This document shows positions 54,137 to 62,657 of a stretch of 64,000 nt of DNA, one piece after another. Where the stretch lies: the NCBI RefSeq assembly GCF_044324785.1, contig NZ_CP172127.1; one strand, given 5' to 3'. The notes beneath the pieces were generated by a model. It was not told the origin of the DNA, did not search any database, and worked only from the letters and a program-made list of their open reading frames with translations. The position numbers and the translations under genes were made by a program. This DNA comes from Escherichia coli (GTDB lineage: Bacteria; Pseudomonadota; Gammaproteobacteria; Enterobacterales; Enterobacteriaceae). Position 1 is the first letter of the stretch; each line of letters opens with the position of its first letter.

Positions 54137-54403
54137 ATGGAATGGCTGGTCAAAAAATCGTGCTGCGATAAACAAGATAACAGACATGTACTTATGCTCT
54201 GCGATGCTGGCGGCGCGATAAAAATGATCGCCGAAGTGAAGAGTGACTTCGCCGTGAAAGTGGGCGATTTACTCTCCCCTTTGCAGAATGCGCTTTACTG
54301 TATTAATCGTGAAAAGCTGCACACGGTGAAAGTCCTCTCGGCAAGCAGTTACAGCCCCGATGAGTGGGAACGGCAGTGTAAAGCGGCAGGGAACACTCAG
54401 TAA
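54137..54403 (+). CDS. pmrD: signal transduction protein PmrD
   Basis: 88 aa from ATG at 54137 ([30 protein letters not shown]); AGGA Shine-Dalgarno at 54126-54129. Confidence 0.9.
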
Positions 54404-54783
54404 CGTTGTTTTGTCGTGGGCAGGAAAATCAACATCAACCCGCTCATAATACAAGCAACTCCCAGTAGTGCCTTCAGCGAAAAAGTTCCTTCCCAGCCGG
54501 GAAGTATCATTGATGCAATCCATACCAGCACATAGCTCATACTGAGCAAGGCATAGGCTTTGCTTAACGCAAGTTTATGTAGCGTTTTATACCAACAAAA
54601 AACGGAAAGCAGATAACCCAGCAGCCCGAGTAACAGTATCCGGGCATCCAGGCCAAAAGCTAACAGCGCCGCGATAAAATCCCATAAGTGCGTCATCGGC
54701 GGTAGATGACTCGCCGCATAACCCAGGCTTAATTGCGCAGCTGAGGCAATAATGACGCTGAATAATCCCCACATCAGGCCCAT
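54397..54783 (-). CDS. arnF: undecaprenyl phosphate-aminoarabinose flippase subunit ArnF
   Basis: 128 aa ([14 protein letters not shown]...TTKQRY), small multidrug-resistance-like membrane protein; the 222-aa track ORF is an upstream read-through. Confidence 0.9.
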
Positions 54784-55118
54784 TACACCGTACTCCCGAG
54801 GATCACAATGCCGCCAATAATGAACGCCACCCCACACCAGTGACGCAGTGATACCGGCTCGTGCCACAGTTTTACTGCAGCCAGCGTCACCCAGACAAAA
54901 TTCAGACTTAACATCGGGTAGGCAATGCCTACCGGTACGTTCTGCAAGACCAGCAGCCAGAGCACCATGGCAAGGCCAAGACAAGCCAGCGCCAGTCCCA
55001 GCCACAGCACGATATGTTTGCGCCGTTTGTTTATCGCCACAAAGCAGGTTGCTTGTTTCTGACACAACTGCCCGGCAACGCTAAGCAAGCTGGCAAAGAC
55101 TAATGTTAGCCAGATCAT
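54783..55118 (-). CDS. arnE: undecaprenyl phosphate-aminoarabinose flippase subunit ArnE
   Basis: 111 aa starting [21 protein letters not shown]; 1-nt stop/start overlap with arnF. Confidence 0.92.
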
Positions 55119-56767
55119 TTGGGCCGATACTGAATCAGCACCAGACGCTCCTGACGATCGATGGCATCTGCGGGCGGAATGGCGAGACTGTTGATATCTT
55201 CATCGCGGTCAACCGAAAGCACGAGTGTAATAATCCCCTCCTGACGATGTTGATTAAGCCAGTTTGCGAACTCATCACCGCTGACAAATCTCCCTTTCGC
55301 ATCCGGATAATTAAGGCCGTATTTCAACTCACCTGTCTGACGATACATGATGATGTCATCGCGTTGCAGGCTCCATGCCAGACCTGCGGCAACGCCCACG
55401 CTGTCAGTAAGAATATAGCGGCTTGGCTGCAGTGATTCTTGTGTCATCTCGACAAAAAATTGCGGATGTTTTCCTTCCAGGACTCTGTCAGGAATTGAAA
55501 ATCCTACCAGCAACGTCAGCCCCAGCGGGCAAAGCGCGGCAAAAGACCAGGTCTTTTCGACGTTTGTTAAGGTGTACCAGCCGAAAAATGCCCATAGCGA
55601 AAAAATCGACCAGGCACAGAAGACTTTATAGCTCTCGAAGGTTTGCCACACCGGCGTGTTCATTGGTCCCCAGGGGGAGACCACAAACGTAGCAATAATG
55701 CCAGTGACGCCAAAAGCGATGTTAATCCAGCCATTAATCCGCAACGCCAGAGGATTATTTTTTGCTGCCAGCAAAGCGTAATGCGCCATCAGCATTGCCA
55801 GAGGTGCAAAGCAGGAAAGAATATAGGTGGGCAATTTGCCTTTGGCGACGGAGAAAAACAGCAGCGGCATTACCGCCCAGCTCAATAAATAGACGGTTGC
55901 GGAATGCTTGCGGTTTTTCCAGCCTGTGTACAGTGCTCCGGGGAGTAATCCCAGCCACGGCAGGCTACCGGCAATGATGACCGGCAAGTAGTACCAGAAC
56001 GGAGCTCTATGCTGAGCATCATCCATTGCAAAGCGTTGAATATGCTCAACCCAGAAAAAATAGTGCCAGAAGTCAGGCTCCCGCTGCGCTATCGCCAGTC
56101 CCCAGGGGAGAACCGTCAGTACGCAACTGATAACCGCCAGCCAGCCGTAAATAAAGAGATCTTTCCAGCGTTTTTGCGTCGCCACCCATGGAAGCACGCT
56201 TAATACCGGCACGGCAAGGGCGAGAAAACCTTTGGTCATCACCCCCATGCCGCAGGTGATTCCCAGCAGTAAAAATCCGGCGCTTTTGCCTTTCCACGTC
56301 TGTGCCTGCATTGCCAGCCAGAAGCTGCACATTCCCGCCACCAGCCAGAATGCAATAAACGGATCGAGCACGGCATAAGTGCCGATGGCATAGACAATAA
56401 ACAATGAGAGATAAATTACTGTGGCGAGTAGAGCCAGACGTTTATCGCGCCATAAGCGCAGAGTAAACCAGGTCACCAGCGCGGCAGTTAACAGGGTCGC
56501 AAAGATAACGCCTGCCCGCACACCAAAGTTATTCGCGCCAAATAGCCATTGCCCAATGCTGTTAATCCAGTATCCGGCAATGGGTTTTTCGAAATAACGT
56601 AGCCCTAACAGATGGGGCACAATCCAGTCGCCGGATGCCAGCATTTCTCGACTGATTTCCGCATAACGCGTTTCATCGGGTTGCCATAGCAGACGTGTGC
56701 TGATCGGTAACAGGTAATAGCAGGCAATAAACGCGAAGAGGCCGATAAGGTAACGTACCGATTTCAT
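55115..56767 (-). CDS. arnT: undecaprenyl phosphate-alpha-L-Ara4N transferase (lipid A modification)
   Basis: 550 aa polytopic glycosyltransferase starting [42 protein letters not shown]. Confidence 0.95.
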
Positions 56768-57657
56768 CAGCGACTACCCGCAATTTGTTGGCAACCCAGC
56801 CAGCCTTCACGTCCGGCAATATTTCCGCGAACAACTTGCCCGAGCGGCAACGTCCCTGATAACAGTTCGCTTAAAGGGCAAAATGTCACGCCTTCCTGGG
56901 CTGCGCGTTTCAGGAGATCCACAAAATTATGCTGATAAGCGCAGCCTTCAACTTCTGCATGAATGGTATAAACCGGCGTGCCTTTATCTCGCAGGATGCG
57001 GTTGAGTAACCAACCGTTAAAATCTTCTGCTTTCACATCCCGACCAATCACTTCATCCCAGGTGGGTAAGGTCACCGGAATTTGCGCAGTGCCAGGGTTT
57101 CCTGATTCGAGCAGTGGACGAAACGGCATGGCCCCACGACAATCGCTGTTGTAGCGCAAATGGAACGCTTCTTTTGCTTCGATCACCTGCTGGTCGGCAC
57201 GCCAGCCAGCGGCTGCGGAGCAGGTTACCGGTTGGCCGATAATTTCTTCCAGGGTGCGAAGGCCGCGTGCGATATCGTCGACCATTGTTTGCCGATCCCA
57301 GTTACTGCTATGGGCTTGCCAGGCATGGTGATCCCAGGCGTGCAGGCCGACTTCGTGGTGTTTAGCCGCTTCACGAATGATATCGGCATTGGCATGACCA
57401 ATCTCTTTACCTGGCCAGGCCGTACCTGCCAATAAAATATCCCAGCCATAAAGCGATGCTGCGTTTGAGCGCAGCATCTTCCACAAAAACTGTGGCTTCA
57501 CCAGTCGCCAGAGATGGCGGCCCATATTGTCCGGGCCGACGCTGAAAAAAATGCTGGCCTGAATATTATGCTTACTCAAGATTTCCAGCAGACGCGGCAC
57601 GCCTTCACGGGTGCCACGAAAGGTATCGACATCAATGCGTAAGCCTACTTTGGTCAT
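56767..57657 (-). CDS. arnD: 4-deoxy-4-formamido-L-arabinose-phosphoundecaprenol deformylase
   Basis: 296 aa polysaccharide deacetylase-like starting [21 protein letters not shown]. Confidence 0.94.
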
Positions 57658-59635
57658 GATGGTTTATCCGTAAGCTCGACGGTGCGCAAGAAGAAATCCA
57701 GCGTTTCGTCGATGGTTTCCTGCATATCAATTTTCGGCTCCCAGTCCAGGCAGCGGCGGGCATTGCGGATGCTTGGTTTACGATGCTCTACGTCCTGATA
57801 TCCTTTGCCGTAGTAGCTGCTACTTTCGACAACGCGAAAGCCCGCAAACGGTGGGAAGTGATGGCGCAGCGGATGTTTTTCGAAACTCGCCAGCAGCATC
57901 TCGCCCAGTTCCTCAATGCTCGCTTCGTTCTCAGGATTGCCAATGTTGATAATTTCGCCGTCGCAGCGATTTCCCGCATTTTCGATAATGCGGTACAACG
58001 CCTCGATACCATCGCGAATATCAGTAAAGCAGCGTTTTTGTTTTCCGCCATCAATTAGCTTAATTGGTGAACCTTCTACCAGATTGAGAATGAGTTGCGT
58101 AATAGCGCGGGAGCTGCCGATTCGTGCTGCATTAAGGTTATCCAGTCGTGGTCCCATCCAGTTAAACGGCCGGAAGAGGGTGAACTGTAAACCCTCTTTT
58201 TCGCCATAGGCCCAGATCACCCGATCAAGTAATTGTTTTGACACCGAATAAATCCAGCGTGGTTTATTCACCGGGCCGACGATTAAATTAGAATGGTCCT
58301 CATCGAAGTATTTATCGCTACACATCCCATAAACTTCTGAAGTTGACGGGAAGATGATTCGCTTACGGTACTTCACGCAGTAGCGGATAATGCGCAGATT
58401 CTCTTCAAAATCGAGTTCAAATACGCGCAACGGGTTGCGGGTATATTCAATCGGCGTGGCTATCGCCACCAGCGGCAAGACGACATCACATTTTTTGACG
58501 TGATACTCAATCCATTCGGAATGAATACTGATATCGCCTTCGACAAAGTGAAAATGCGGATGATTCAGAAAACGGCTTATCGCATCGCTGCCAATATCCA
58601 GACCGTAAACTTCATAATGATCTTCGCGCAGCAGGCGTTCTGTCAGATGGTTGCCAATAAAGCCATTCACCCCGAGGATGAGTACCCGGGTACGGCGTCG
58701 GGCGGTGCAGGCAGGCTGGCTATTCAAGCGTGAACCTTGCACCAGGCCCAGCGTCTGCGCTAACTGCGAGCCCTGCATAGTAATGCCGTCGCCCGCCTGT
58801 CCGGTGACGATTTCCAGCGCGCCATCGCCACAGGCAATCAGCAGTGGTGCAACAGAAATCACGCTCCCCGGCTGTGCTTTGCTGGCATGAGGATGAACAC
58901 GCGACGACCAGACGGTGAATTTCTGATTGCCAACATAGCTGAAGGCACCCGGCCACGGATCGGCAACGGCACGCACCATGTTGTGCAGTACGGATGCCGG
59001 CTTATGCCATTCGAGGAAACTGTCTTCCGGTGTTCTGCGACCAAAACAGGTGGCTTCGTTTTCGCGCTGGGCGATTTCCAGAATATTACCGTGTTTAATG
59101 GCGGGTAATGTCTGCTCCAATAGCTGGCGCGCGGCATGGCACAATTTATGATGCAGCGTAATGGCGATATCGTCTGGCGCAATGGCAACGCGCAGTTGTG
59201 CCACAATGGCCCCGGCATCGGCACGTTTCACCATTCGGTGCAATGTAACGCCAGTTTCCGTTTCACCGTTCACCAGCACCCAGTTCAGCGGCGCGCGACC
59301 ACGATATTTTGGTAACAGCGAACCATGCAGATTAAATGCACCTCTCGGAGCGAGCTGCAAAATCTCATCGCAAATAAGATGGCGATAATAAAAAGAGAAA
59401 ATCACCTCTGGTGATAGTTGGGCAATGCGTTCCACCCACAGCGGATGATTAACGTTATCCGGCGCATAAACTGGAATGCCTCTTTCCGCTGCCAGTCGGG
59501 CAACCGAACCATAAAAGGCTTTTTCACCGGGGTTATCAGTATGGGTAAAAATGGCGCTAATTTCGTAACCGGCAGACAGCAGGGCTTCAATACCGAGGCA
59601 TCCCATATCGTGGTAGGCAAAAACGACGGTTTTCA

Positions 59636-59636
<1 letters not shown>
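57654..59636 (-). CDS. arnA: bifunctional UDP-glucuronate decarboxylase / UDP-Ara4N formyltransferase
   Basis: 660 aa; N-terminal formyltransferase half ([20 protein letters not shown]) fused to C-terminal SDR-type dehydrogenase half ([12 protein letters not shown]). Confidence 0.96.
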
Positions 59637-60607
<971 letters not shown>

Positions 60608-61765
60608 TTATTGTCCTGCGAGTTGCTGAAGGGCTGTGATGACGCGGTCGGCATCGGCGGTGGTCATATCCGGGAACAGCGGCAACGAACAGATGCGTTC
60701 GCTATTCCATTCGGTATTCGGTAACGACAGCGTGGGAAAACGCTCGCGATAATATTTTTGTGTGTGAGCGGCGCGGAAATGTAACCCGGTACCAATGCCT
60801 CTTTCTTTTAACGCTTCCATCAACGCATCGCGACTGATACCACAACGTTGTTCATCGACACGAATAATAAACAGATGCCAGGCGTGAACGTGCGGCCAGG
60901 CGGGAAGGCTTAATGGCTGAAAGGGGAGAGCTGCCAGTGCTTGCTGATATTGCTGGGCAATTTCGCGCCGACGGGTGTTGAGGTGCTCTAATTTGGCTAA
61001 CTGGGTCAGGGCAATCGCGGCGTTAATATCGGTCAGATTATACTTATAGCCCGGCGTTAAGACTTCAGCTTGCGGTGCACGGCCCCAGGTTTGTCTGTCA
61101 TAGGCATCGACACCCAGACCGTGAAATTTTAGCATCCGTAGCTGGCGGGCAAGGTTTTCATTATCAGTAACAATCAGGCCACCTTCCGCACAGGTAATAT
61201 TTTTGATGGCGTGAAACGAAAAAATAGCGGTACCTTTTGCGCCAATATGTCGGCCTTTGTAATACGTACCGACGGCATGGGCAGCATCTTCGATAACTGC
61301 GATGCCGTAACGTTCGCCAATGGCGCGAATGGCGTCAATATCTGCTGGCGCACCGGCATAATGCACCGGAATGATGGCTTTAGTGCGTGGCGTAATGGCT
61401 GACTCGATCGCTTCAGGCGTGACCATCAGCGTATCGCGGTCGACATCCACCATTACCGGCGTTGCACCCAACAAGGAGATCATATTGAGGGTTGAAACCC
61501 AGGTCAGGGAAGGCGTAATCACTTCATCGCCCTTGCCAATTTCCAACGCCATTAGCGTGATATGCATTCCGGCGGTGGCTGAACTGACCGCGATGGCATG
61601 CTGATTTCCCGTCAACTGGCAAAAGGCTTGTTCAAGCGCCTGATTCTTCGGACCGGTTGTGATCCAACCGGATTCGAGAACCTCTTTAACTGCAGCGAGT
61701 TCCTCCACGCCCATTGCTGGTCGCGAAAAAGGCAAAAATTCTGACATTGCTTTTCCTTCCGCCAT
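60608..61765 (-). CDS. arnB: UDP-4-amino-4-deoxy-L-arabinose--oxoglutarate aminotransferase
   Basis: Track ORF 60608..61780; start placed at [16 protein letters not shown] giving 385 aa; DegT/DnrJ/EryC1 PLP aminotransferase family. Confidence 0.93.
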
Positions 61766-61845
61766 TGAATACCTGTCCACTTATATTTGCTATAAAGAGT
61801 GTTGTGTATATTTTGCCATTTGGAGCAAAATTTTAAGGATAGAAT

Positions 61846-61862
61846 ATTAACTTAACCTTAAG
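61846..61862 (-). promoter_or_regulatory. PmrA (BasR) box in the divergent arnB-ais promoter region
   Basis: Minus-strand CTTAAG-GTTAA-GTTAAT fits the direct-repeat PmrA box pattern YTTAAK-N5-YTTAAK (first base of second half-site deviates), about 80 nt upstream of arnB. Confidence 0.55.
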
Positions 61863-62054
61863 AAACTAATATTAGACGTAAATATTGAAATTTTTATATT
61901 TTTTCTTATTTAGGCTTTGCATTTGGCAAAATTTTGAGGCATTTTGCCGGCATCGCAGGATTTTTAATATTACACCAACTGCTAATTATCGCCAGAAATG
62001 TCGCTCAATTTCACGGTAATTGTCTGGTTGCGCTTGTCTATAGGTGGAGTTTAC

Positions 62055-62657
62055 GTGTTAGCTTTTTGCCGCTCTTCGTTGAAGTCAAAAAAATATTTCA
62101 TCATTTTACTGGCGCTCGCTGCAATTGCCGGACTGGGTACTCATGCCGCCTGGAGTAGTAATGGTTTGCCACGTATCGACAATAAAACACTGGCCAGACT
62201 GGCACAGCAGCACACGGTTGTCGTTTTGTTTCGCCATGCTGAACGTTGCGATCGTTCAACCAATCAATGCTTGTCAGATAAAACAGGTATTACGGTCAAA
62301 GGTACCCAGGATGCCCGTGAACTGGGCAACGCTTTTAGCGCTGATATCTCTGATTTCGATCTTTATTCCAGTAATACCGTCCGGACCATTCAGTCGGCGA
62401 CCTGGTTTTCAGCGGGTAAAAAGCTGACGGTAGATAAACGACTTCTTCAATGCGGTAATGAGATTTATAGTGCAATTAAGGACTTACAAAGCAAAGCACC
62501 TGATAAAAATATCGTTATTTTTACCCATAATCATTGCCTGACATATATTGCTAAAGATAAGCGTGATGCGACATTTAAACCTGATTATCTGGATGGTTTA
62601 GTCATGCATGTGGAAAAAGGCAAAGTTTATCTGGATGGGGAATTCGTTAACCACTAA
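62055..62657 (+). CDS. ais: lipopolysaccharide core heptose(II)-phosphate phosphatase Ais (PmrG)
   Basis: GTG at 62055 gives 200 aa ([31 protein letters not shown]...); histidine phosphatase motif LFRHAERCD. Confidence 0.88.

Follow-up and report, generated by a model that had tools for sequence, protein, structure and literature searches.

We propose that a 17-bp direct repeat, CTTAAGGTTAAGTTAAT, located in the region shared by arnB and ais of Escherichia coli is the PmrA (BasR) operator of the arnB (pmrH/pbgP) promoter, where it would act in class II activation; we put the probability of this reading at about 90%. A secondary role of the same box at the divergent ais gene is less certain and is given about even odds. 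The products of the arn operon attach aminoarabinose to lipid A, and the operon is the principal chromosomally encoded route to polymyxin and colistin resistance; the box would be the switch by which signals of the PmrAB (BasSR) system, whose regulator PmrA senses iron, reach this operon. The direct evidence presented here for the arnB box is its sequence, its uniqueness in the window (the whole 64,000-nucleotide stretch of E. coli chromosome that was analysed), its position relative to a published transcription start site and its conservation. Binding by PmrA would be expected from the literature on the orthologous boxes of Salmonella and Klebsiella.

Organisation of the arn-ais locus

The genes in the window were assigned by transferring the annotation of E. 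coli strain 7/2 (locus coordinates + 49649), which showed 100% identity to a 501-bp query around the box; 5418 of 5426 complete E. coli genomes were matched by this query. The gene order in this part of the chromosome is menE, pmrD, arnFETDACB and ais (Table 1). Both the gene identities given in the original prediction and its description of arn, pmrD and ais as one contiguous cluster were confirmed by the transferred annotation.

Three start codons can be considered for arnB: ATG 61747 (PGAP, 379 amino acids), ATG 61765 (the K-12 record, MAEGKAM..., 385 amino acids) and GTG 61780, which corresponds to the longest open reading frame. As the annotated start is either ATG 61747 (PGAP) or ATG 61765 (K-12), the arnB-ais intergenic region was taken to be 61748-62054, a length of 307 bp. 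The control region had been predicted at 61781-62054. Its right edge, which abuts the GTG start codon of ais at 62055, was upheld, but its left edge lies 33 nt too far into the 5' untranslated leader of arnB, having been set by the furthest upstream GTG in frame with arnB and not by an annotated start. A motif ATGGC(G/T)GAAGGA is kept across species, either as coding sequence or as a ribosome-binding site. Searching positions 61400-62400 for known RNA families (Rfam) returned none at E <= 1.

Table 1 Features of the arn-ais locus, in window coordinates
Feature	Position	Strand	Remarks
pmrD	54137-54403	+	Connector protein gene, far end of the cluster
arnF, arnE, arnT, arnD, arnA, arnC, arnB (operon arnBCADTEF)	54397-61747	-	Strain 7/2 annotation
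arnB coding sequence	60608-61747	-	First gene of the operon; strain 7/2 annotation
arnB 5' untranslated leader	61748-61820	-	About 74 nt to ATG 61747; includes in-frame ATG 61765 and GAAGGA ribosome-binding site
arnB transcription start	61821	-	Transferred from K-12 2365854
arnB -10 hexamer TAAAAT	61830-61835	-	Exactly 10 nt downstream of the box
PmrA/BasR box CTTAAGGTTAAGTTAAT	61846-61862	-	Half-site 1 CTTAAG (61862-61857), spacer GTTAA, half-site 2 GTTAAT (61851-61846)
AT-rich spacer, box to ais -35	61863-61916	.	54 bp; sequence poorly conserved, length conserved or shifted by about 1-2 helical turns
ais core promoter	61917-61945	+	-35 TTGCAT (61917-61922), 17-bp spacer, -10 CATTTT (61940-61945)
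ais transcription start	61952	+	Transferred from K-12 2365723; 7 nt after the -10 hexamer
ais 5' untranslated region	61952-62054	+	103 nt
ais (pmrG)	62055-62657	+	LPS core heptose(II)-phosphate phosphatase, GTG start

Sequence of the box

A repeat of the form CTTAAG-N5-GTTAAT had been predicted on the arnB strand, and the strand does read CTTAAG-GTTAA-GTTAAT from 61862 to 61846, exactly as claimed. The verified PmrA boxes of Salmonella are composed of the half-sites CTTAAG and XTTAAT separated by a 5-bp spacer (PMC3973317). Comparison with characterised PmrA sites gave an exact fit to this verified form, and the E. coli box aligned with the single Salmonella pbgP box as well as with boxes from Citrobacter and other Escherichia. 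The pattern CTTAAG-N5-NTTAAT has a single match on the two strands of the 64 kb, CTTAAGGTTAAGTTAAT, against 0.02 expected. Relative to the stricter consensus YTTAAK-N5-YTTAAK the box carries one mismatch, a G at the first base of half-site 2, and when one mismatch to this consensus is allowed the window contains 7 matches against 3.0 expected; for this reason the motif is convincing only when its exact form is taken together with its position and conservation. The centres of the two half-sites are 11 bp apart. The form TTAAnnTT-N3-TTAAnnTT, reportedly that of the BasR box of Ogasawara and co-workers in 2012, is also matched exactly at 61846-61862. Judged by sequence and position, 61846-61862 qualifies as a PmrA box, and its predicted identity is supported by the form of the motif, by the geometry of the arnB promoter and by orthology to the Salmonella pbgP site.

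Geometry of the arnB promoter

Transcription start sites were taken from a re-analysis of K-12 dRNA-seq data, which places the primary starts of arnB at 2365854 (+) and of ais at 2365723 (-) (PMC12987492, Table 1). The intergenic regions of K-12 (NC_000913.3) and of the window align without indels, and these starts therefore map to 61821 (-) for arnB and 61952 (+) for ais. Relative to the K-12-derived arnB start the box occupies -41 to -25, over the -35 region. The distance from the TAAAAT hexamer to this start is 8 nt, not 6-7 nt. The start was determined by dRNA-seq under antibiotic stress and not under Fe3+ induction. A consensus scan recognised no -35 hexamer for arnB, as expected of a promoter that would be activator-dependent.

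The ugd promoter of K-12 was used as a control and showed CTTAATATTAACTTAAT, 10 nt, TATTCT and then the published start site. The ugd box thus resembles that of arnB in belonging to the same regulon, in being followed by a -10 hexamer after 10 nt and in having a start that is induced together with those of arnB and ais under antibiotic stress in K-12 (PMC12987492). It differs in that it is a perfect YTTAAK repeat, located at -39 to -23, and serves one gene and not a divergent pair.

We infer the mechanism at arnB from this geometry, by analogy with PhoB and with the structures of PmrA bound to DNA. Phosphorylated PmrA would bind head-to-tail as a dimer to the two half-sites, overlap the -35 region, take the place of the -35 contact and recruit sigma-70 RNA polymerase to TAAAAT, so that arnBCADTEF transcription would be started at about 61821 by class II activation of the PhoB/OmpR kind. 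Two sequence differences were observed in the promoter, both outside the box. The discriminator base at 61827 distinguishes this strain from K-12 (TTTTGC and TTTCGC, respectively, on the arnB strand), and the -10 hexamer, TAAAAT here, reads TAGAAT in strain MLI121 and in E. marmotae (position 61833).

Conservation in E. coli and the Enterobacterales

The 49 bp centred on the box were identical in 5231 of the 5414 E. coli genomes with a match. Two of the approximately 183 non-identical alleles were inspected and both differ outside the box, one being the -10 variant of strain MLI121 and the other carrying IS1 at the outer edge of the box. With a site that is essentially invariant, variation of the promoter box cannot be counted as a significant source of diversity in resistance within E. 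coli. The original prediction held any variation in this box to be phenotypically relevant, and such variation is next to absent.

Rare IS1 events do strike the arnB-ais control region. In the blood isolate EC5931 (locus L006, 2517-2545 and 3295-3315, equivalent to window positions 61854-61862), IS1 lies exactly at the outer edge of the box and is flanked by a 9-bp target duplication, AACCTTAAG. The complete box stays with arnB and the ais side retains only the CTTAAG half-site beside the IS1 end, which makes this insertion a natural separation of the box from ais. In E. coli 720632 (locus L004, 5289-6000), IS1A is located directly between menE and ais, and pmrD, arnBCADTEF and the intergenic control region are absent; lacking the whole arn operon, the strain is expected to have lost the aminoarabinose modification of lipid A.

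The survey was extended to 80 species of Enterobacterales with an ArnB homologue, using the pattern YTTAAK-N5-NYTAAK within 350 bp upstream of arnB. A box in the forward orientation was found in 70 of these 80 regions and a reverse-oriented one in 5, and TAnnnT follows exactly 10 nt after the box in 70 of 72 cases; the Klebsiella-type box CTTAATATTATCCTAAG was among those recovered. This rule of a box, 10 nt and a -10 hexamer is usable for the annotation of arnB promoters across the order.

Two rearrangements were noted in Citrobacter. The arnB leader of Citrobacter amalonaticus (locus L013, 1690-2000) has acquired an insertion of about 210 bp, which moves the box to a distance of 310 bp from the start codon; part of the insert, CGCTCACCCCAGTCAC, may resemble an ERIC/IRU repeat element. 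In the Citrobacter freundii complex (loci L010-L016 and L024) nudI is found directly upstream of arnB, ais having been lost from between them, and the arnB box CTTAAGGATAAATTAAC is kept together with its -10 hexamer.

The divergent ais promoter

The intergenic region has the ais core promoter as its second conserved block, CTTTGCnTTT...TTTAAGGCATTTT, which is kept in 14 species. No described ais/pmrG promoter was found in the literature covered. The gene is treated as PmrA-activated in E. coli (PMC3140997), and in ExPEC it co-varies with the arn operon, ugd, eptA and basSR. The original prediction considered the box consistent with co-regulation of both divergent units, and this is supported by the treatment of ais as a PmrA-activated gene (PMC3140997), by the co-induction of its start with those of arnB and ugd, by the lack of a second box and by the retention of the box upstream of ais, at quantised spacing, where arnB is missing.

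The box is oriented toward arnB, about 55 bp upstream of the ais -35 hexamer, with its centre about 98 bp upstream of the ais start; this distance and this orientation exclude classical class II activation of ais. Within 61748-62054 no second box was found on either strand at up to one mismatch from the consensus, and the matches with two mismatches are confined to sequence overlapping the box and to the ais leader (62004-62020). A second PmrA box nearer to ais was rejected on these grounds, the class II position of the ais promoter, 61913-61929, reading GGCTTTGCATTTGGCAA and bearing no resemblance to a box. Three further candidates were discarded. An ais-oriented box that would reuse the palindromic CTTAAG (CTTAAG-AAACT-AATATT, + strand) has 2 mismatches and a second half conserved in no other species; an alternative ais promoter from the consensus scan, TAGACG-16-TATATT at 61873-61900, has no reported start site and its sequence is not conserved; and a conserved TTTAAG just upstream of the ais -10, considered as a half-site, is variable in 6 of the 14 species and appears as TTTGAG in E. 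coli. Two repeats were observed around the promoters, namely an 8-bp inverted repeat GGCAAAAT/ATTTTGCC that spans the ais -10 (61925-61948) and is absent in Salmonella, and a direct repeat GCAAAATTTT(A/G)AGG with one copy over the arnB -10/start region (61825-61838) and one inside the ais promoter spacer (61926-61939). Neither is conserved as a structure across species.

The ais locus was compared in 14 species, four of which have no adjacent arn operon. All 14 carry one box on the strand opposite to ais and upstream of the same core promoter, including the arn-less loci of Intestinirhabdus alba, where pmrD precedes ais, and of C. rodentium, the 'C. freundii' TPA genome and the L097 genome, where menE precedes ais. 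In the arn-less loci a -10 hexamer is found exactly 10 nt beyond the box on the strand leading away from ais (L093, 1250-1500, TAGAAT; L095, 1260-1500, TAATAT; L096, 1219-1500, TATATT; L097, 1240-1500, TAATAT). Judged by sequence, this arrangement resembles an orphan promoter of the PmrA type that faces the 3' end of menE or pmrD, and with the opposite-strand -10 also kept, retention of the box in these species need not be due to ais. The remnant in C. rodentium retains ATGGCTGAAGGA, the 5' end of arnB.

The gap between the end of the box and the ais -10 is 77 bp in E. coli, E. albertii, E. marmotae and three Citrobacter, 67 bp in Salmonella (two genomes), I. alba, C. rodentium and two others, 56 bp in Escherichia sp. 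E1V33, and 64 bp, out of phase, in C. tructae. Thirteen of the 14 species therefore show 77, 67 or 56 bp, although only about three independent length changes are represented, one of them out of phase. Within one length class the spacers share about 50-60% identity in ungapped register, and the leaders vary from 30 to 113 bp for ais and from 98 to 310 bp for arnB. Gap classes that differ by 10 and 21 bp suggest a requirement for the box and the ais promoter to keep a fixed rotational position on the helix relative to each other. Palindromic TTAA cores make the box nearly symmetric, and read on the ais strand it has 0-1 mismatch in several species; on this basis we give about even odds to the same single box also supporting PmrA-dependent activation of ais, remotely and in a helix-face-dependent manner. 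Activation would then proceed from this one box and not via a second, ais-proximal one. With a box centred as far upstream as about -98 the mechanism at ais cannot be classical, and it is one that we infer.

A fuller version of this proposal, to which we assign slightly less than an even chance, is that the box works in two directions, as a -35-overlapping activator site for arnB and as a remote, phase-dependent one for ais. Its centre would lie at about -98 from the ais start in E. coli, at -88 in Salmonella and at -77 in Escherichia sp. E1V33, and the near-palindromic TTAA cores would allow such use. If true, this would account for the persistence of the box, at quantised spacing from the ais promoter, in genomes that have lost the arn operon; as a corollary, an orphan PmrA-dependent promoter directed away from ais would remain in them. 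Part of this may already be covered by a Salmonella footprinting paper of 1999. The ais side poses a small mechanistic question, that of OmpR-family activation from about 100 bp upstream, for which natural variants exist, and the bidirectional, phase-dependent use of the box is an apparent, if modest, lead.

Alternative explanations

The box might serve arnB only, with ais co-expressed through a weak unrecognised PmrA site, indirect control or supercoiling coupling between the back-to-back promoters, and with the conserved spacing reflecting the packing of two promoters plus an UP-like AT-rich element or a nucleoid-protein site, rather than PmrA touching polymerase at ais. We regard this as a serious competitor, though one with the odds somewhat against it. 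It accords with the remote position of the box, centred at about -98 and oriented toward arnB, with the finding of no remote PmrA architecture of such a kind in the literature searched, with the out-of-phase gap of 64 bp in C. tructae and with a regulon table of 2014 that lists BasR for arnBCADTEF and no regulator for ais; the opposite-strand -10 kept in arn-less species could in turn explain why they retain the box. However, no other box-like site was found near the ais promoter, and the spacer has an invariant length within each class at only about 50-60% ungapped identity while the neighbouring leaders change length freely. The length changes that are observed amount to 10 and 21 bp, and the palindromic TTAA cores give a near-symmetric site, which in several species has 0-1 mismatch when read on the ais strand.

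For EPEC O125ac:H6 it was proposed that QseB~P activates arn and that box-bound PmrA blocks polymerase, in which case QseB would target the site as well as, or instead of, PmrA. QseB~P was found to shift a 60-mer of the EPEC arn promoter that is identical to window positions 61826-61885, and a pmrA qseC double mutant is reported to show constitutively raised expression of arnB and eptA (PMC10729948). Since the whole PmrA box falls within this 60-mer, binding of QseB~P to a site of its own and cross-recognition of the box would give the same shift. The QseB consensus G(C/T)(G/A)ACAAT(A/T)A-N4-TT has no match with up to 3 mismatches wholly inside the 60-mer; a nearby match with 3 mismatches (61878-61893) runs past its end, and the best match in the region, GCGATAATTAGCAGTT at 61992-61977 (-) with 1 mismatch, falls within the ais leader, some 130 bp away from the EMSA fragment. 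The spacing of the box 10 nt from the -10, conserved at 70 genera-level loci, is that of an activator site, and a large literature treats arnB/pbgP as PmrA-activated (including PMC3140997 and PMC1804205). We consider a QseB-based explanation unlikely. Direct PhoP control, a feature of pbgP in Klebsiella and Yersinia, finds no counterpart in the E. coli region: a PhoP box (T/G)GTTTA-N5-(T/G)GTTTA is absent upstream of arnB, the best intergenic match having 3 mismatches and lying at the ais start codon, in agreement with the reported lack of a PhoP box here and loss of direct PhoP control of the operon in E. coli (PMC2565834). Finally, a chance match without any regulatory role has a negligible probability. 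The region is AT-rich and the one-mismatch consensus is matched more often than expected (7 against 3.0), but only 0.02 occurrences of the exact form are expected in the window, and the site keeps a fixed distance to the start and to the -10, is near-invariant in E. coli (5231/5414 genomes) and shows a strand bias of 70 to 5 among Enterobacterales; by this conservation the chance explanation is effectively refuted.

Comparison with known PmrA systems

The box in the E. coli arn promoter is an already known element. As the site was drawn as a PmrA motif in 2023 (PMC10729948), the arnB finding amounts to the correct recognition of a known element, and confirming it adds nothing new for E. coli; the geometry rule across species and the spacing pattern at ais are incremental observations. 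The literature accessible to us yielded one binding experiment on this E. coli fragment, the QseB EMSA (PMC10729948), and neither direct BasR binding nor mutational data for the exact sequence.

The closest relative is the pbgP/pmrG region of Salmonella, whose pbgP promoter is bound by PmrA in vitro and in vivo (PMC1804205). As in E. coli, a single intergenic box lies between the divergent arnB and ais/pmrG genes at an offset of 98 bp to the arnB ATG, and the two boxes have the half-site form and the 5-bp spacer in common. They differ in sequence, CTTAATGTTAATTTAAT in Salmonella against CTTAAGGTTAAGTTAAT in E. coli, and in the distance from the box to the ais/pmrG -10, which is 67 bp and 77 bp, respectively.

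PmrA box1 of the Klebsiella pneumoniae pbgP promoter has been footprinted, and NMR and crystal structures with PmrA are available (including PMC2565834 and PMC3973317). It likewise consists of two hexamers 11 bp apart that are bound head-to-tail and overlap the -35 region, and Klebsiella-type loci share with E. coli the geometry of a box followed after 10 nt by TAnnnT. In contrast, the K. pneumoniae box reads CTTAAT-ATTAT-CCTAAG, is separated from the start codon by about 155-170 bp and has no adjacent ais, and K. pneumoniae possesses a PhoP box and a second, PhoP-dependent promoter, whereas E. coli has no PhoP box here. Contact of PmrA with sigma-4 was modelled by analogy, not demonstrated, in the PmrA-DNA structure paper. 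The arrangement proposed for arnB also resembles that of the pho box and other PhoB class II promoters, in which tandem repeats with an 11-bp period replace the -35 and end 10 nt upstream of the -10, although the regulator and the recognition sequence are different ones.
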